From the NCBI GenBank assembly GCA_963813815.1, contig CAWFAD010000008.1, positions 16,900 through 80,899 of the forward strand: DNA of 64,000 bases, written 5' to 3'. The position numbers and the translations under genes are program-made. Source of the stretch: an uncultured bacterium (lineage in GTDB: Bacteria; Krumholzibacteriota; Krumholzibacteriia; Krumholzibacteriales; Krumholzibacteriaceae). Positions 22,199-60,452 of this stretch are shown here, in pieces. Under the pieces are notes generated by a model. It made no database searches. It was not told where the DNA came from and saw nothing but the letters and a program-made list of their open reading frames with translations. The number at the start of each line of letters is the position of its first letter. Position 1 is the stretch's first letter.

Positions 22199-22556
22199 GG
22201 GGGCGAATGGATTCGACGGGGATGGAAGAGGCAAGGGGAGCGTGCCGAGGCGCCATCAACCTCGTAAATCAGGTGGCACAACACAACTGCCGACAACCAG
22301 TTGGCACTGGCTGCCTAGTACATAGGCAACCCGTCCGCTCCGTCTGCGCAGGCAGGGGCGGAACCCGGGCGTCGATTACTGCCGGCTAGCGTGAATCTTT
22401 GCTCAGGAGATTCACGCGAAACAAACATGAGCTAGTCTCTCGGATCTTCTGCCTGTCGAGGCTCCCCGGGACGAAACAAACTCGATAGGACACGCACGTA
22501 GCAGCCCCTCGCGGAAACATCTTCGGACGCGGGTTCGATTCCCGCCGCCTCCACCA
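22199..22556 (+). ncRNA. ssrA: tmRNA; tag reading frame ADNQLALAA* (22289-22318)
   Basis: 5' GGGGGCG...GGATTCGAC; 3' GCGGGTTCGATTCCCGC-CGCCTCC-ACCA acceptor with G.U pair; internal tag ending LAA. Confidence 0.97.
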
Positions 22557-22594
22557 TTATCAAGTTGGCACGCCACGCGCGGCGCCTCGGAAAT

Positions 22595-23773
22595 CTAGTG
22601 AAGTGTCCCCTCCAGCAGAAGATCGTCGACGTTTGTTGATTCGAGAAGTCTGAGCCCCTTCTCGCGGTCGACGACGAGCGGCATACAGCCGGGATAGCGC
22701 AGCTTGAATTGTTCCAACCCCCGAAGAGTTCTCGAAGCGCTCGACTTTGCCTCGATCGCGTATATCTTCCCTCTCAGCTCAACGACAAAGTCGACCTCGA
22801 ACTTCCCTTCTCGCCAGTAATGAACCCTTCCGCTGGAACGCAACAACGCCGCGCCGACGGCCGCCTCGAAAATCCGGCCATACCACTGAGGATTTGCGTC
22901 GACCTCTTCGGGCGATCGGAAGGCATGTACCAGAGCGTTGTTCAGCGGCAAGAGTTTCGGGCTGGAAGCCCGCGTCCTCACTTCCGAGCCGCTGTATTTG
23001 TGAAGTGTGCGAATGAGGAATGCCCCCTGCAACAGATCCAGGTAGTGCTTGATCGTGTTCACATTCCCGGTTTCCTGAAGTTGGCCCAGGAGTTTCTGGA
23101 GTGACACCTCCTGGGCTGGATATGCCATCGCAAGCTCGAACATCTGGCGGAAGAGCGCCGGCTTCTGGACTGAACTGAGGCCCAGTATGTCTTTGATGAG
23201 CACGGGTTCAATAATCGAGTCCCGCAGATACTTCTGCCATCTCGGAACGTCGTGACACAACGATGCGGCTGCCGGATATCCGCCGAACTTCAGGAACTCG
23301 TCGAGTCCCCATCCAAAAGCCTCCCTGCACTCGCCGAGATTCCAATGATCGGCAGTGATGACCTCGTATCTCCCGGCCAAGCTTTCACCGAGTCCCCGCT
23401 GAAGGGACAGGCTGGCTGATCCCAACAAGACGACTTTGAGTCTCTTGGACTCGCGGTCCTGATCGAACATGTGCTTGATAACCGAGCTCCAGTGGGGAAT
23501 CTTCTGAACTTCATCGATCACGAGAAGGACGCCATCGCCCATTCGCCTGGCCCTTTCCCAATGCGCCGTGAGCCACTCCCTGTCGGGAGTAACGATCTCA
23601 TCCGCCGTGACCATAAGCGAGGGGCCCTCCCAACGTGCGATAATTTGCTGGAGCCCCGTGGTTTTACCGACTTGCCTCGGGCCGATGACCACCTGGATGA
23701 AATTGAGCTGCTCGCGCAGCCGGGATGCCAATAGTCGAGTGAAATGCCGTTCAATTTCCTTCATAGTGGCCAT
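22595..23773 (-). CDS. AAA+ ATPase, AAA_14/DUF4143 type, with C-terminal nuclease-like motif
   Basis: GPRQVGKT, IDEVQ, LGS, ESLAGR, GGYP and EVDFV...AIEAK motifs. Confidence 0.9.
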   Translation of the reverse strand: MATMKEIERHFTRLLASRLREQLNFIQVVIGPRQVGKTTGLQQIIARWEGPSLMVTADEIVTPDREWLTAHWERARRMGDGVLLVIDEVQKIPHWSSVIKHMFDQDRESKRLKVVLLGSASLSLQRGLGESLAGRYEVITADHWNLGECREAFGWGLDEFLKFGGYPAAASLCHDVPRWQKYLRDSIIEPVLIKDILGLSSVQKPALFRQMFELAMAYPAQEVSLQKLLGQLQETGNVNTIKHYLDLLQGAFLIRTLHKYSGSEVRTRASSPKLLPLNNALVHAFRSPEEVDANPQWYGRIFEAAVGAALLRSSGRVHYWREGKFEVDFVVELRGKIYAIEAKSSASRTLRGLEQFKLRYPGCMPLVVDREKGLRLLESTNVDDLLLEGTLH

Positions 23774-23920
23774 AGCATATTCATTTTTGGTAGATTTGTC
23801 TAGTATATTTAGGAGAATAATCTACTAAACTTTGAATTATGCCGCAACAAATTGTTATTATATGAGTTATATAATTAGCACTTCTACGGAAAGCGGGCAA
23901 AAACAGGGGTGTCCCTCCGC

Positions 23921-23945
23921 TTCTTTGCAACAGTGTCCACCATTT
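23921..23945 (+). repeat. att-like repeat copy A
   Basis: TTCTTTGCAACAGTGTCCACCATTT. Confidence 0.7.
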
Positions 23946-24009
23946 TCGAGCATAAGCTTCGATTTCCATGCAACAATGTACACTGTATATCGCATGGCTG
24001 GACGACAAC

Positions 24010-24336
24010 TCACGAGACGAACCGGAAGGCCCCGAACCAGACGACAAACATGAATCCGAGCACGCAGAGAAATCCGAAGGCTATCAAAGCCGCGATTATC
24101 ACGGTGCGCCGGAACATGAGTCGCTTTGCTTCCATGTAGGTTTCCATTGCATCCTCCTTGTTGAGCGGTACAGGCGCATCTCCCGTCGTTTCCATCTTTG
24201 CGAACTCCTTGGCAAGGTCGGCGGTTTCGGGGTCACTCGCCAGGTACGATTCGACAAGCGCGCGCGTATCCGCGCTCGCCTCGTTGGCCACATAGATGGG
24301 TAGAAGATCGAGAATCACGTTTCGAGTGATCTTCAT
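24010..24336 (-). CDS. membrane anti-sigma factor (zf-HC2-like, lacking Zn ligands)
   Basis: NVILDLLPIYVANEASADTRALVESYL plus a C-terminal TM helix; directly downstream of the ECF sigma gene. Confidence 0.75.
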   Translation of the reverse strand: MKITRNVILDLLPIYVANEASADTRALVESYLASDPETADLAKEFAKMETTGDAPVPLNKEDAMETYMEAKRLMFRRTVIIAALIAFGFLCVLGFMFVVWFGAFRFVS

Positions 24337-24337
24337 T

Positions 24338-24823
24338 TCAATACACCTTCCTTTCGATACAGGCCGCAAGGATCATCTTGCGAACGCGATGCACTTTCAC
24401 TTTGGCTGATGCGAGTGTGATTTCCAAGACGCGGGCGATCTCCTCGTAAGGCATATCATGCCGCACGCGCAGGACAAAGGCCGCACGATCGATCTCCGGA
24501 AGCGTTCGCAGGAGCCTCTCAACTCTTACCAGCTCGAGCCGGGATTCGGCTCGATCTTCCGGTCCGGCCGCGGGATCCGGCAGCGTCTCATCGAGAGCGA
24601 TCTCGCGCCGGCTCTTGCGCCGCCGTTCAAGAAACGTGTTGCGAGCGATCGTCATGAGATATGCCTTGAGGGTTTCCGTGCGAATGGCGCTTCTCTTCAC
24701 CCATGCGCGAACGAACGTTTCGGAAGTGATGTCCTCCGCTTCGGCGCGCTCGCCCGCAAGCGAGAAAGCGAAGCGGTAAACCTCCGGGGCGTAGGACTCG
24801 TATAGTTCTTGAAAGCGCAGCAT
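24338..24823 (-). CDS. ECF RNA polymerase sigma factor
   Basis: AEDITSETFVRAW, YLMTIARN and YEEIARVLEITLASAKVKVHR. Confidence 0.92.
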   Translation of the reverse strand: MLRFQELYESYAPEVYRFAFSLAGERAEAEDITSETFVRAWVKRSAIRTETLKAYLMTIARNTFLERRRKSRREIALDETLPDPAAGPEDRAESRLELVRVERLLRTLPEIDRAAFVLRVRHDMPYEEIARVLEITLASAKVKVHRVRKMILAACIERKVY

Positions 24824-24957
24824 TTTTCTCCTCCGGTGATAATAGACATTTGGAGATGGAAAGTTACAAACAAATGGATGTGACATGAGGAGGGATGCGC
24901 TCACTCCGGAGCCGAGCGACAGAGATGGGGTACGGTACGATAGCGTGCAGGTGGCGT

Positions 24958-24982
24958 TTCTTTGCGAGCGTGTCCACCAATT
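24958..24982 (+). repeat. att-like repeat copy B
   Basis: TTCTTTGCGAGCGTGTCCACCAATT. Confidence 0.75.
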
Positions 24983-25005
24983 CAAATCAGACGACAACGT
25001 CAGGC

Positions 25006-25857
25006 CTACGGCCGAATCCCGGCTGATTCTCGAAAGATCGTTCGCGATACCAGCTCGGTTGCACAAGCAGTCAGCGCGAATATCGCGAGAATGATCAGGT
25101 AGATCTGCAGGGCGCTCAGGTCTCCAAAATCCCACCAGTTGTCGCGCATAAGATTCACCGCCGATGTATTCAGCACGGCATGAAAAAACATCGCTATGAA
25201 CAAACTGCCATTGCTCCATCGCCAGAGGTGACCCATGATAAATGCGATGAGAATCGTAGATATCGGATATAGCACGACAAATTGCGACCAGCTCAATCCA
25301 TTGCGGAAATCCGCAAACCTGAATGCGGGGAAATGCCAACACGCCCAAACGAGGCCGACTATGATTGCCCTGGTCACTGATCTCAAGCGGTCCTGCAAAC
25401 GAGATTGGAGAAAACCGCGCCAACCCATCTCCTCTCCCAACGGGCCTACTCCGAAAATAATCCCGCCCAGAAATGCATTCACCGGCACGAGTGCGATCAT
25501 GGTAGCGGCGATTTTCCATAGGGCGATTTTGGCCGAAATCCCCAGAACGAGATAGAATACCAGTCCGATGGCGGGCAGCAGAAAGAAGGCAGCAATATAA
25601 ACACGCCAGTTTACCTTTACGAGAATCAAGCGCTTCAGCAGACCGAGGACAGCCGCGCGCCCGCCGGTTAGGCCAGTCATAATAAGCGCAGCTGCGGTCG
25701 GGCCAAAGCTGCCTGCCAGAAGAAATCCCGCAAATCTCCCGTCGTTGATACCGACCATTCCATTAATCGATGCTATGCCCATCAACCAGATCGCCCACGA
25801 AATAGCGTAGGCAACAGCCACAAAAGCCAAGATGGACTTGATCCCTCGATCCTTCAT
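25006..25857 (-). CDS. CPBP/Abi family intramembrane metalloprotease
   Basis: GEEMGWRGF, WACWH and FHAVLN motifs; multiple TM segments. Confidence 0.92.
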   Translation of the reverse strand: MKDRGIKSILAFVAVAYAISWAIWLMGIASINGMVGINDGRFAGFLLAGSFGPTAAALIMTGLTGGRAAVLGLLKRLILVKVNWRVYIAAFFLLPAIGLVFYLVLGISAKIALWKIAATMIALVPVNAFLGGIIFGVGPLGEEMGWRGFLQSRLQDRLRSVTRAIIVGLVWACWHFPAFRFADFRNGLSWSQFVVLYPISTILIAFIMGHLWRWSNGSLFIAMFFHAVLNTSAVNLMRDNWWDFGDLSALQIYLIILAIFALTACATELVSRTIFRESAGIRP

Positions 25858-26028
25858 TGAGGGCCTCCTCAATCAAGGCGGCATCCGGCCCGTAGGAGAG
25901 TATCATCGCCGAGTGAAGTAAGGCATACCTGGACTGCGTGCATCAATACGGCACAGCGGCGCAGTTGTTTCCAGAAAAGAGCCCGCCTGGATTCGGTCTT
26001 GCATTCCAGCAGTACGTGCGGCGGTCAC

Positions 26029-26250
26029 TCAGTATCTGTCGAGTGCCCAGTTCAGCGCCTTCGCGACAGTCTTTCCCTTAACACCGATATGCCGGGCAAT
26101 AGCCTCGTTACTGAGCGCCAACCGTTTCAAATGCAACGCCTTTCCCGCGATCTGCTGATATTTTGGAGGGATCTCGACCTCCAGAAGTTCCGCTTCGAAT
26201 GTCATCTCCGCAAAGGTTCGAATTCTTTGCGGGCGTGTCCACCATTTCAA
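26029..26250 (-). pseudogene. orphan HTH-containing C-terminal module whose frame begins at att copy C
   Basis: KWWTRPQRIRTF...LSNEAIARHIGVKGKTVAKAL; the only start is a TTG abutting the core, with no clear RBS. Confidence 0.6.
26209..26247 (+). repeat. att-like repeat copy C (most complete)
   Basis: CGCAAAGGTTCGAATTCTTTGCGGGCGTGTCCACCATTT. Confidence 0.8.
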
Positions 26251-26265
26251 CTCAATTGTGTCGGA

Positions 26266-26754
26266 TCATTCTTCGCAGACCGATTTCGAGCGTTTGCGAC
26301 CCTTAATGGTCTTCAGCGCATCGGTGAGGACCTTCAGGACGAGCCTGTCTTTCTCCCTTGCCGCCGCTTCCTTGCTGGCAATGATCCGCTCCAGCTTCAG
26401 AACGAGCACTTTTGTCCGACCGAGAGGCACCTTGATCGCATGTTTCCTTTCCTCGTCGAATTCGCCCAGTCCGTCCATAGTGAGAACGATATCGAAGAGC
26501 TCGATGCCATTGCCGGCGAACATTGGCCCATTCCTCGCCGTCGGAGGAACGTAAACGCCACGAACCTCTTTCAGGGCTTTTTCAAGGCCGGGATCCGGCA
26601 GCGTGCGAAACCACAGGTCGATACCCTGAGTCACAACGGGCGCTCCCTGAAGGGCGGCGGCGGAAAGCCCCACGATCATGAACTCGACTTTCTGGCGAAC
26701 GAGCTCCTTCAGAAACTCCGCTTCCCGATCACCGAATATCAACGAATCGGCCAC
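26266..26754 (-). CDS. nucleotidyltransferase-fold protein
   Basis: IVGLSAAALQG...TQGIDLW and C-terminal IIASK...REKD, typical of this small NTase family. Confidence 0.75.
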   Translation of the reverse strand: MADSLIFGDREAEFLKELVRQKVEFMIVGLSAAALQGAPVVTQGIDLWFRTLPDPGLEKALKEVRGVYVPPTARNGPMFAGNGIELFDIVLTMDGLGEFDEERKHAIKVPLGRTKVLVLKLERIIASKEAAAREKDRLVLKVLTDALKTIKGRKRSKSVCEE

Positions 26755-27097
26755 GACGCAACGCCCTCCTCAAACGCTCGACAGGCTTCTCACTCAAGAG
26801 AAGCAGTGTATGCCTGATATTGTCTCGATCGATCCCTGGATGCAGCCTCGAGATGCGTTCCGATTCGGTGGCCAGGGATTTCATCCGTTCGGCCGGCGTA
26901 TCCGTTTCTTCGAGCAGGGCCGATACGGATATATGCAGGCGCTCCGCAATAAGGATCAGGGATAACGGGACGACGTAATCCTTGCGAGCCAGCGAATAGA
27001 ACGCATTTCGACTGACCCCCGCTTCACGCAGCATCTCTCCGATGTTCAGGCCCCTCCGGCGGCATTCGTATTCGACCTTATCCATGGAAAGCTTCAT
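26729..27097 (-). CDS. XRE-like HTH protein (putative antitoxin or autoregulator)
   Basis: LNIGEMLREAGVSRNAFYSL HTH; overlaps the NTase gene. Confidence 0.72.
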   Translation of the reverse strand: MKLSMDKVEYECRRRGLNIGEMLREAGVSRNAFYSLARKDYVVPLSLILIAERLHISVSALLEETDTPAERMKSLATESERISRLHPGIDRDNIRHTLLLLSEKPVERLRRALRRGRFVDIR

Positions 27098-27103
27098 ATA
27101 CAT

Positions 27104-27132
27104 AATGTACCACTATTTGGTACACTTGTCAA
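27104..27132 (-). promoter_or_regulatory. sigma70 promoter with palindromic operator
   Basis: TTGACA-N17-TACATT, with TGTACCA-N5-TGGTACA (27106-27124) overlapping the spacer and -10 box. Confidence 0.75.
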
Positions 27133-27161
27133 CCGAGAATAGGCCCTTGTGTGACGTTATT

Positions 27162-27263
27162 CTAACCGTTGGGTCGATGCTCGACACGCCGGAGCCAGGC
27201 AGCAGCTTTAGTCGCCGTCTTGTCTGTGATTCCGAGCCTCCTGGCGATCGCCGAGTCGGGCAT
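27162..27263 (-). pseudogene. second, shorter remnant of the att-associated HTH module
   Basis: MPDSAIARRLGITDKTATKAAAWL aligns with LSNEAIARHIGVKGKTVAKALNWA. Confidence 0.6.
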
Positions 27264-27268
27264 AGTCT

Positions 27269-28045
27269 CTATTCGCCAAAAAGAGTTTCCGGCCGCTGCT
27301 CCATCAATTCTCTCATTGCCGCCAAGAAACGCCCGGCATACGCACCGTCCAGCGGACGATGATCGAAGATCAGGGTGGCAGAAATGAATTGCCTGAAAAC
27401 ACACTGCCCCGCCGCATTCCGAACAGCCTTCTCCTGCAGGGCCCCCAGGCACAGCACGGCGATCATCGGCATCGACATTGCCGGAACACCGTTGGTGACG
27501 CCGAAGCTGCCGAGATTCGTGATGACAAAATTGCCATAACGCTTTTGAAGAAAATCTATCGATCGTGACGGGAACCTCATGGCGAGCTTCCGAATAAAGG
27601 CCGGGATGCGCATAAAGCGTTTCAGATAGAGATAGAATTCCCCTTCATCCCGCTGAATTCTTTCGACCTGCCCTCTGCTTTCCTTGACAATCTCATCCAG
27701 CCTTTTCTTGTCGGGGTTGTGCAGTACGACGTACTCCACATGGTTCTCGCTGTCGACCGGAATATTGAAGACCATCTCTTTGGCATCGACGATTTTCTTC
27801 CCATCGAACGAGGCGTAGAGAAACGGAAAATGCAGCAAGGTCTTCGCGGATGCTTTCATGAAAAGATGGGTAAGCGATATTCTGAGGGAAGCCTCACGTT
27901 TGGCATTTGCTTCGCTCCGAAGCGCCAGAAGCCTGTCCATCTCGATATCGATCGCCATCGAAACCGCCGGAACGCGTCGATTCTTGTCGAATTTCATAAT
28001 TTGAAATCTTCGAAAGAGCCGCTCTTTCTCTTCCCGTTGCACCAT
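27269..28045 (-). CDS. stand-alone 2-oxoacid dehydrogenase E2-type acyltransferase catalytic domain
   Basis: FVITNLGSFG and FDHRPLDG motifs; no lipoyl or E3-binding domain. Confidence 0.85.
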   Translation of the reverse strand: MVQREEKERLFRRFQIMKFDKNRRVPAVSMAIDIEMDRLLALRSEANAKREASLRISLTHLFMKASAKTLLHFPFLYASFDGKKIVDAKEMVFNIPVDSENHVEYVVLHNPDKKRLDEIVKESRGQVERIQRDEGEFYLYLKRFMRIPAFIRKLAMRFPSRSIDFLQKRYGNFVITNLGSFGVTNGVPAMSMPMIAVLCLGALQEKAVRNAAGQCVFRQFISATLIFDHRPLDGAYAGRFLAAMRELMEQRPETLFGE

Positions 28046-28143
28046 ACGTGTTTCTCTCTTTCGTGGAGCGATACTGATGAAAGTCAATCTTATGGGCAAT
28101 TCGATTCCGTGTCAAGGTGCCGGCGGGTTGTGCACGCGCCCCC

Positions 28144-29948
28144 CTATTTCCCTTCCTCCAACCGCTTCAGGGCGGCTTGGCCGTTCTTGTTCCCCGGATT
28201 GAGCTCGAGAGATTTTCGGTACCCTTCGATCGCGCGCTCCTTCTGCCCCACCTTCGCGAGGACCTCCCCGAGGCTGTCGTAGGCATTCCAGGAATTTGGA
28301 TAGAGCTCGACGGTCTTTTCGAACACGTAGACGGCGGCCGCGATCTCGTTCTCCTGAAGCAGCCGGTACCCGAGGTTGTTGAAGTCGGCTTCTTCGAACA
28401 CCGGGCCGTCTTTCCCGCGCCGCGCGAGGAGCTCCCGCAGCTTTGCATCGGCGGCCGGGATTCCTCCCTCGGCGAGGGACTTTCCGAGAGTGTCCGCGGC
28501 GGACCCGAGCCTTTGCTTGCGAACCGCCGTTTTCGCCCGTTCGATCTGCGGCTGCTCCCAGGGGAACATCGCCTCGACCTTTTCGCTTTCCTTCAGGATT
28601 TTCTCCGCTGCGGCGACGTCGCCGACGCCGAGATACGCCTGGGCCAGCATGGAGTAAGTGCTGGCGAATTGTGGGAAATCCTCGCGGCATGCGCGCAGAA
28701 GACCGATCGCTTCGGCGTACTGCTTGCTCCCCAAGTATTGAGTGGCCCGTTGCATTGCTTCGTCGACGCCGAAGAAGGACGCGTCGCCTCTCTTCGCGCG
28801 CGCTCCATTGAGACCGGCGACCGCCGCCTCGACGCCCTTCTCACCCGCGTCGCGCACGTACTCTTCCACAAGGGATGTCCTCAGGTTCAACAGGCTGGCG
28901 GATTCGTCCTGCGGGACGGGATTCCCTTTCTCCAGAAGCTGCAGCGCGAATTCCAGAACGCGGTCGGTCCCTGAGGCGATGTCGGCCGGCGTGTTCAGCA
29001 TGCGCAGATCGGGAGGCACGCCGACTCCTTCCCAGGAAACGCCGTTGTAATCGCTCATCACCTTGAAGGCCACCCACAGGGTCCAGCCATTCGGCATCCG
29101 ATCCGGGTATTGCGCCGAGAAGGCGCCCTCGGTGAGATCCCCCACGACGGTGACGTGGGGAAGCACGCGCATGGCCAGCACGAAGACATCGGCGCCGCTC
29201 GCGCTGAGGCGATGCGCGAGAAGGACGCTGGGCCGCGTGAACTGGACTGGACCGCCGGGCTCGACGTTGCGGTACTCCACCGGGGCCAGATCGTCGTGCT
29301 TGGGACCGTAGCGGGTCTGCGTTCGCATATAGTGTCGCTTGCGGTCGGCGAACCGATTCGCCACGAGCTCCGCCACGTTCCCCGTTCCACCCGGGTTGCC
29401 GCGCACGTCGACGATCATCCCCCGAGCGCCGGCGAGCTCCGCGATCGCCATGTCGATCGCCTGACTCGTCGGCCCGGGTCCCGCTTTGAAGTCGCCGAAA
29501 TGCATGTACCCGATCCCGTCCGAGAGCCAGCCGTAGGTGAAGCGACCCTTCAAGGTATCGGTGGCGCCGCCCTTCAAGTATTTCGACTTCACGAGATCCA
29601 GGGAGAAGTCGTCGGGCTCGCGGGCCTCCATCAATCCGCCGCAGTCGCGCCGCGTCCCGTCGGACAGGCAAACGTGCGCGTCGTTCAGGTTCCGCAGCAT
29701 GGAGAGCAGTATGCCCCACAGCTCCTCGTCGGTGGTCGCCGGGGTGACCTGCGGGCGGTATACCTTGTACAGGGCATCCCAGTCGACGTGCTTGACACCG
29801 AACTGGGCGTAGTTTCTATCGAGGCTCTTCCATACGTACTCGAAATTCAATACGGGATCGCGGGGATTTGCGCTCCCCTCGATTCTCGGCAACGGCGGCC
29901 GACGCCCAAAGGCAAGCGGCGGCAAAGACAATCCACATGACGTGCCAT
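28144..29948 (-). CDS. S41 peptidase (tricorn-C1 plus S41) with C-terminal TPRs; signal peptide out of frame
   Basis: LNDAHV, DVRGNPGG, SASGAD, EGVGVPPD and TPR (NAYDSLGE). RBS AAGGAG and signal MWIVFAAACLWASAAVA lie in shifted frames at 29885-29948. Confidence 0.85.
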
Positions 29949-30033
29949 GATCGATAGCTCCTTTCCGTATGCTCCCCAATCTTGTCAACACTCGAATGAT
30001 ACGAGAACGGAATGGAAGTTGTTGCCCGGAATA

Positions 30034-30071
30034 GCGAAGGTTCGAATTCCTCGCGAGCGTGTCCGCCATTT
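30034..30071 (+). repeat. att-like repeat copy D (candidate right border)
   Basis: GCGAAGGTTCGAATTCCTCGCGAGCGTGTCCGCCATTT. Confidence 0.75.
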
Positions 30072-60239: not shown

Positions 60240-60252
60240 TCGACCACACATA

Positions 60253-60411
60253 TTCCTCAGGTGCTCGCGAGGAGCCGAACAGGGAAGAGGGTGAGAATCC
60301 CTCACGGACCCGCCACTGTGAATGGCGAGCCTCCCGCCCGAAACCACTGGCGTAACGCTGGGAAGGGGGCGGGGGCGACGGAGCCACAAGTCAGGAGACC
60401 TGCCTGAGGAA
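60253..60411 (+). ncRNA. cobalamin riboswitch
   Basis: AGGGAA..GGTG.GAATCC, GCCACTG, CCACTG...GGGAAG and B12 box AGTCAGGAGACCTGCC; upstream of a TonB receptor. Confidence 0.95.
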
Positions 60412-60452
60412 TCCAACGGCATCGAAACTCACGATGGTGGAGGTTTCGCCGC

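Follow-up and report, generated by a model that had tools for sequence, protein, structure and literature searches.

The window that we analyzed, a 64,000-nucleotide stretch of DNA, contains a tmRNA gene (ssrA; 22199..22556, plus strand; tag ADNQLALAA) that was called by ARAGORN and matched Rfam RF00023 at 187 bits. Downstream of this gene lie four direct copies of a repeat core that has TCCACCA in common with the last 7 nucleotides of the tmRNA gene; no others were found in the 2.53-Mb assembly, in which the reversed pattern, used as a control, occurred zero times. Copy A (23921-23952, plus strand) and copy B (24958-24989, plus strand) retain the inner 16 nucleotides of what we refer to as the P arm, which in copy A is followed by CCACCA and by no HTH-encoding tail. 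Copy C (26215-26254, plus strand) has the full 24-nucleotide P arm, GGTTCGAATTCTTTGCGGGCGTGT, followed by CCACCA, and copy D (30039-30068, plus strand) has a full-length, degenerate P arm (CCGCCA). Counted to the end of CCACCA, copies A, B, and C occupy 23921..23942, 24958..24979, and 26215..26244. The arms of copies A and B are cut at the same base, directly after GCAAAGAA in the middle of the arm's GAATTC, with unrelated sequence beyond, and a locus in another genome (L046:7566) has its arm cut in the same way, upstream of the same ATPase gene.

The core copies bound a series of small cassettes in which every gene is on the minus strand. Cassette 1 (22557..23936, by Pfam and translation) contains an AAA_14/DUF4143 ATPase gene (22595-23773), and the stretch from the 3′ end of this gene to the crossover is conserved in L006 and L046, which looks as though the cassette had moved together with its own junction. 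The same type of ATPase recurs in ssrA arrays elsewhere (L006 8784-9962 and 14919-16148; L021 11166-12533). Cassette 2 (23943..24973) contains an ECF sigma-70 gene (24338 to ~24901; Pfam Sigma70_r2 and r4_2) and a 119-aa ORF (24010-24369) that has no Pfam family and that, guessing from the adjoining sigma gene, may encode an anti-sigma factor. A CPBP/Rce1-like protease module follows (24980..26021, gene 25006-25872, assigned by Pfam), and after copy C comes a cassette (26255..27261) with a 162-aa ORF (26266-26754) and a 124-aa ORF (26729-27103), for both of which Pfam returned no family, and a second HTH tail that is truncated at its 5′ end. This second remnant (27162..27280, ending in AIARRLGITDKTATKAAAWLRRVEHRPNG, within an ORF at 27162-27452) lacks a core, resembles database protein P0045, and has a profile match at G000:C8:44061-44162. 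The last cassette (27269..30062) contains genes for a 2-oxoacid_dh acyltransferase (27269-28099) and an S41 peptidase-TPR protein (28144 to ~30000), both assigned by Pfam. Elsewhere in the window, at 60242-60421, there is a Cobalamin riboswitch (RF00174, 117 bits).

Pfam searches found neither a recombinase nor a tyrosine integrase among the genes of the window array, and no large serine recombinase (LSR) body was found in the window. The only Recombinase-domain match in the assembly was an LSR on contig 16, which we rejected as the missing body of the window's tail, as it is without this tail and lies in two ORFs. That LSR (G000:C16:312344-315574, L063), with overlapping ORFs of 310 and 257 aa adjoining a 336-aa ORF, may belong to a separate small element.

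The frame under study (26029..26250, minus strand) runs through copy C for 73 codons from a TTG, or 78 codons from stop to stop, and our translation was identical to the one in an earlier sequence-only reading of this DNA. That reading had found the frame to have no convincing start, and indeed its only start-type codons are the TTG at 26250 and an ATG at 26205. Re-translation likewise reproduced its frames through the other sites, which read KWWTLLQR in copy A, NWWTRSQR in copy B, and WWRRRESNPRP at the tmRNA end, where two stop codons precede the peptide in the window; in copy D the frame reads KWRTRSRGIRTF, and the tail is gone after IRTFA. Residues 3–15 (WWTRPQRIRTFAE) are encoded by the P arm, and residues 30–72 (about 26035-26163) form a three-helix HTH, modeled by AlphaFold2 from a 28-row alignment with helices at residues 30–43, 48–55, and 59–72 (pLDDT 96–97), preceded by a low-confidence stretch (residues 1–29) that was modeled as a disordered linker. 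The window tail had no Pfam match at E ≤ 0.01, and its relatives matched HTH_23 weakly. A Foldseek search of the tail model against the PDB gave no match at E ≤ 0.001, and the best rows (E 0.6–3) were all HTH DNA-binding domains (NarL, DeoR, sigma region 4), a generic and non-diagnostic result. A sigma-70-like promoter match (TTGAAA, 17 nucleotides, AAGAAT; 26222..26250, minus strand), which as a consensus match serves as a lead only, crosses the window junction and points into the tail; one such match was found, compared to a mean of 0.2 in shuffled sequence. Separate expression of the tail is possible in the window, not as a design of the family. The TGA stop of the 162-aa ORF (26266-26268) lies in the frame of the tail, eight codons before the WW, as does a corresponding stop in L046.

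Sequences related to the tail form a genuine and widespread family. Each of 55 candidate small proteins (40–128 aa) matched it, and a profile search of 1.84 billion representatives returned 1258 representative clusters at E ≤ 1e-3, of which 510 reached ≤ 1e-10. Among the best 150 of the 1258, the match was C-terminal in most, and the longest representative was no more than 330 aa. Fused forms of body and tail in the databases are mostly fragments. A genome scan yielded 58 tail loci from many phyla, ranging from Krumholzibacteriia to Arenicellales and Solirubrobacterales, none of which carried the label Dehalococcoidia. Across members, conservation starts sharply at the WW encoded by the CCACCA of the core, with a conserved run WWT[RL]SQRIRTFAE followed by the three-helix domain, and the N-terminal sequences are unrelated between members; wherever an LSR body is present, conservation continues upstream through the core into that body. 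Word-index searches aimed at long proteins bearing the tail matched 1 of 46 candidates, which by eye had no recombinase domain, and, in a further attempt, 0 of 25. These searches were uninformative as a consequence of the index, because HMMER and tblastn did find fused forms. Plasmids and phages yielded only distant LSRs (≤33% identity, with alignments not covering the tail), and none of 70 pattern matches in viral contigs was confirmed as a relative.

In other genomes, the linker and HTH form the in-frame C terminus of a large serine recombinase. At L051:8342-10225, one 627-aa ORF extends from the N terminus with the catalytic serine to SWWTRHDSIRT and the HTH, and is homologous over residues 21–575 to the LSR of L058, described below. 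At L006:12184-13584, a single 466-aa ORF has Recombinase (4e-23) and Zn_ribbon_recom (9e-8) domains and then GSNSLRWWTPSQRIRTFAE, which precedes an HTH_23-like end (5.5e-5, below the Pfam cut-off). Of 203 database relatives, 20 aligned to the L006 ORF in one stretch that covered 40 aa or more on each side of the WW; the majority of these 20 aligned from their first residues, as expected of gene fragments. The sequence-only reading had suggested that an upstream gene, plausibly an LSR, would read across the core into the HTH tail. This is the arrangement in these relatives (L051, L006, and the 20 of 203), and it is not found in the window, which has no body.

The attachment site is a 48-bp near-palindrome, with GGTTCGAATTCTTTGCGATGGTGG on one side of its center and ACACnGTCGCAAAGAATTCGAACC on the other. 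It is part of the ORF, in frame, where it codes for the linker GSNSLRWWTxSQRIRT between the zinc-ribbon/coiled-coil region and the C-terminal three-helix HTH; we take it to be attP. Wherever a partner arm exists, the sequences flanking the crossover repeat each other in inverted orientation, and at L006:13359 the arms agree at 22 of 24 positions. The outer arms agreed at 12 or more of 18 positions at five junctions, whereas random 18-mers scored that high in only 2 of 5000 trials. The partner arm to the right of copy C is degenerate (10/24).

The core does not duplicate the tmRNA 3′ end. What the two have in common is limited to TCCACCA and a T-loop-like motif, GGTTCGA(A)TTC, between which the core has five extra bases. 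The T-loop-like motif lies 24 nucleotides from the center in the core and 19 nucleotides from it in the tmRNA gene. The description of serine integrases by Rutherford et al. (2013, PMC3783163) places the zinc-ribbon motif 5 bp nearer to the center in attB than in attP, and the difference between 24 and 19 nucleotides equals this offset. The center of the palindrome, between TGG and ACA, corresponds to the step between T and CC in the tmRNA sense. Because of the symmetry of the arms and the point at which identity starts in hybrid junctions, we infer that strand exchange takes place there, which would put the crossover between T22550 and C22551 in the window tmRNA gene and between 26238 and 26239 in copy C. 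The core gives the crossover to the base, with the exact dinucleotide deduced. In L083/L094 (G003:C4) and L079 (G002:C71), a second tmRNA-like 3′ fragment stands ~25 nucleotides after the tmRNA gene; it consists of GGGTTCGATTCCCGCC and then GTGTCCACCA, which is to say a tmRNA-type T arm joined to core-type inner bases, and is followed by a flank like that to the right of window copy C.

At other loci the recombinase gene is found in two parts. At 7 of the 58 loci, the tail is followed downstream by a tmRNA gene on the other strand, the geometry seen in the window; in L054 and L042 this place is taken by tRNA-Ala and tRNA-Glu, respectively. Recombinase bodies or their remnants were found at 10 loci, the window not among them, and at L027 the partner arm alone is retained. 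At L058 (600 aa) and L021 (638 aa), a complete LSR with Resolvase (PF00239), Recombinase, and Zn ribbon domains adjoins ssrA. The L058 frame crosses the junction into tmRNA antisense sequence, with LRQW before the junction and RRRELHPRP after it; the frame of the L030 remnant does the same (SLHWW, then RRRESNPRP), and that of L021 runs from SLRQW into RRRE across an older tmRNA fragment. Thus, in L058, L021, and (as a remnant) L030, tails lie at the distal end of ssrA islands with a proximal recombinase, the arrangement for which the sequence-only reading had proposed to look. Its expectation that the integrated LSR would end in an ssrA-derived peptide was borne out at the same three loci and failed in the window, where an ATPase gene occupies the corresponding position and no ORF reads into ssrA because two stops stand directly before the tmRNA end.

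The two parts can be rejoined in silico. Excising the L058 island, which comprises 9,070 bp between two junctions, fused body and tail in frame, as had been predicted for the circular form, and generated a 639-aa ORF that aligned to residues 4–623 of L051; the rebuilt attP had arms agreeing at 19 of 24 positions, and the tmRNA end was left intact. L021 is a counter-case. There, the sequence preceding the tmRNA gene recurs at the junction upstream of the tail, and the recombinase-type frame, which is not in register with the tail, meets a stop 5 bases short of the core.

Several neighboring observations bear mention. A recombinase at L054 (10679-12423) that is 71% identical to that of L058 adjoins tRNA-Ala(TGC), not tmRNA, and its P′ arm has a 1-nucleotide deletion that shifts the frame into the tRNA. 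Two intact islands have kept a MerR_1-like protein of ~200 aa (L058 14466-15059; L021 10262-10864), which is a candidate regulator or directionality factor. At L049 (8384-10221) and in protein P0197, the ORF of a tyrosine integrase continues, uninterrupted by a stop, into the core and HTH tail; these ORFs are probably neighbors that stem from other ssrA islands, with readthrough in GC-rich sequence. Open frames upstream of the tails in L035, L056, L009, and L022 were considered as bodies and discarded, as they have no recombinase domain.

Among close relatives, cassette content varies at this crossover. Tails were found in 9 of 15 genomes of the same genus, often several per genome, and in none of the 15 genomes searched outside the genus. 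In G009 (C12, L095), the CPBP block (window 24973-26021) stands directly after the tmRNA gene, with 90% identity to the window by BLASTN and with homology that begins at 24973, the T of TCCACCA. The tmRNA genes of the window and G009 are themselves 81% identical, and the higher identity of the block suggests that it was transferred. Beyond the position equivalent to 26021, G009 and a contig of public run X3 have other DNA, and the tail is absent. In G020, G022, and G025, the tmRNA gene is followed by a remnant of the partner (P′) arm, and in G001 it is followed by a terminator, with the contig ending 208 nucleotides later. Contigs from public runs lack single cassettes, joining 24922 to 26286 (X2) and 26246 to 27262 (X19), which we regard as weak hints because these contigs are only 90% alike. 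Two further contig joints, 22556 to 26118 and 23815 to 26216, have sides under 30 nucleotides. An X1 contig joins a P arm to the ATPase cassette, and its spacer differs from that of copy C; it therefore represents the arrangement of another strain and not a circle of the window strain.

From the unsplit and split genes of relatives, the in-silico excision, the palindromic site and its register, the boundary of conservation at the WW, and the accretion of cassettes in related genomes, we conclude that the window frame is very probably the displaced, orphaned 3′ end of an LSR gene that spans its own attachment site. The architecture of that gene, its split state, the rejoining in frame, and the variation of single cassettes at the crossover are seen directly in the sequences. 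In the mechanism that we propose, the LSR would act on attP and on the final bases of the tmRNA gene, recombining the two. On integration, the body of the LSR would stay beside ssrA and would now end in tmRNA-antisense codons (WW RRRESNPRP), and half of the linker together with the HTH would end up at attR, on the distal side of the island. A later excision, or the arrival of a second element in tandem, would then rejoin body and tail in frame. On this reading the window preserves attR-type scars alone: four P-arm copies bound small cassettes, with one intact tail, one truncated tail, and no LSR body. For the window copy itself the claim rests on homology, because it has no upstream recombinase, its partner arm agrees at just 10 of 24 positions, two stops precede the tmRNA end, and the one LSR of the assembly is tail-less. 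The window tail is an orphan in a decayed, recombinase-less stack of small cassettes, and with the body gone, nothing toggles there any more.

One alternative is that the frame is a stand-alone small HTH regulator of 58–73 aa, such as an excision or regulatory factor, which would be expressed from the att junction and the 5′ end of which would simply overlap the core. The window ATG at residue 16, the promoter-like match across the junction, about a dozen 58-aa database entries that start at residue 16, and the shortness of most database entries are all in its favor. However, the residue-16 codon is ATG at only 1 of 49 distinct junctions, that of the window itself, and GTG or TTG at 4 of 49, any in-frame start-type codon in the flank occurs at 19 of 49, and the promoter scan produced a consensus match only; a stand-alone gene with its own conserved start, the outcome that the sequence-only reading had named as refuting it, is thus absent. 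The N-terminal 29 residues are moreover modeled as a disordered linker, and amino-acid conservation extends through the core into the LSR body where one is present. We therefore regard a stand-alone regulator as unlikely. Another alternative, that these are classical tyrosine-integrase islands in which the repeats are duplicated tmRNA 3′ ends and the frame is an accident, draws on ssrA being a known hotspot (PMC3146451), on the tyrosine integrase ORFs that adjoin some tails (L049, P0197), and on the tmRNA-like fragments near several junctions. This explanation is contradicted by the repeats, which have only TCCACCA and the T-loop motif in common with the tmRNA end, offset by 5 nucleotides, rather than being duplicates of it, by LSR domains, and by a palindromic site inside the LSR ORF, and no tyrosine integrase occurs in the window array, which together make it highly improbable. 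Integron gene cassettes were also considered and rejected; the array has no IntI, and its repeats are LSR half-sites, not attC.

More difficult to judge is what the exchange of endings does. Our best guess assigns the HTH to the free, full-length enzyme, for additional DNA binding or for autoregulation; integration would then remove it and leave a tail-less recombinase under different regulation. A stronger version holds that replacing the HTH with an ssrA-encoded ending is adaptive, a built-in switch that alters the action of the enzyme such that, for example, the full-length form integrates or represses itself and the tail-less form is locked or limited to excision. The same idea was raised for DsiB by McMurdie et al. 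(PMC3146451), discussed below. In keeping with it, the tail has been kept across many phyla (58 loci, 1258 clusters), its HTH fold is predicted at high confidence, the split is exact and in frame, and tandem junctions regenerate body-plus-tail ORFs, as at L006. However, a role in the free form alone would account equally well for conservation of the tail, orphan tails decay (truncated copies occur at window 27162-27280 and in L046, L055, and G002), and typical LSRs function without such a tail. We accordingly consider a built-in switch doubtful. With similar reserve, we raise the possibility that this family of serine integrases uses an attP within its own gene as a sensor of integration state. 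Taken as a whole, that proposal would have the free element make integrase with the extra HTH and the inserted element make a tail-less enzyme with a tmRNA-antisense end, tandem neighbors supply tails to each other's enzymes, recombination itself set directionality or expression, not (only) a separate directionality factor, and recombinase-less cassettes like those in the window be shuffled in trans at the same crossover.

Genome engineering has in LSRs one of its leading tools, and the control of their one-way reaction is under active study. A natural family of integrases that cut and rejoin their own gene would keep a record of integration state within that gene and offer a new way to regulate the reaction. 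On the split-gene reading, more than 1000 clusters of "hypothetical small HTH protein" near ssrA are gene fragments that mark island boundaries. For the genome of the window, the result is modest, a decayed stack of cassettes without a recombinase.

Two of the nearest known systems use tyrosine integrases. SSV1-type ("suicidal") integrases of archaeal viruses and plasmids have attP inside the integrase gene, and integration into a tRNA-type gene partitions that gene to both ends of the provirus. Our recombinases resemble them in the in-gene attP and in the parting of the gene on integration. They differ in that the SSV1-type enzymes are tyrosine recombinases, archaeal, and mostly disrupted by the event, whereas here the enzyme is a serine recombinase (PF00239) of which the catalytic body remains whole and a C-terminal accessory domain is removed. 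Mycobacteriophage BPs has integration-dependent immunity (PMC4557955). In that phage, the gene that is split is that of the repressor, the integrase is of the tyrosine type, and the effect is reported to be removal of a degradation tag. Like our recombinases, BPs has an attP within coding sequence, such that integration alters a protein C terminus. The analogy is conceptual only, as the split gene here is the recombinase itself, of the serine type. To our knowledge, the canonical LSRs A118/LI, Bxb1, and phiC31 have attP outside the gene and no C-terminal HTH tail. They do have the same order of Resolvase, Recombinase, and Zn ribbon domains and the same kind of short att sites made of inverted half-sites (PMC3783163).

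Another close system is that of the ssrA islands of Dehalococcoides (McMurdie et al., 2011, PMC3146451). There, dsiB, the gene for a CcrB-like LSR, adjoins and always overlaps attL and does not meet a stop codon until past the island, and the authors speculated that it would be complete only on the circle or with a neighboring island's "requisite 3′ gene fragment". Like the islands studied here, those islands stand in tandem downstream of ssrA, some of them without an integrase. They have in addition a DsiA partner and a six-gene integration module, and they insert in the T-loop with a 20-bp direct repeat (PMC3146451), whereas here such a repeat is absent and the identity is limited to TCCACCA, 7 nucleotides at the very 3′ end, with the boundary 6–7 nucleotides from that end. 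The passages on DsiB describe no conserved 3′ fragment, HTH, palindromic attP within the ORF, or unsplit gene. Full-text literature outside subscription journals and supplements likewise returned no serine-integrase HTH tail, palindromic in-ORF attP, or unsplit genes of this kind. Overlap of the recombinase gene with attL was noted for DsiB in 2011; in the literature covered, the conserved HTH tail and a palindromic attP inside the recombinase gene appear undescribed.
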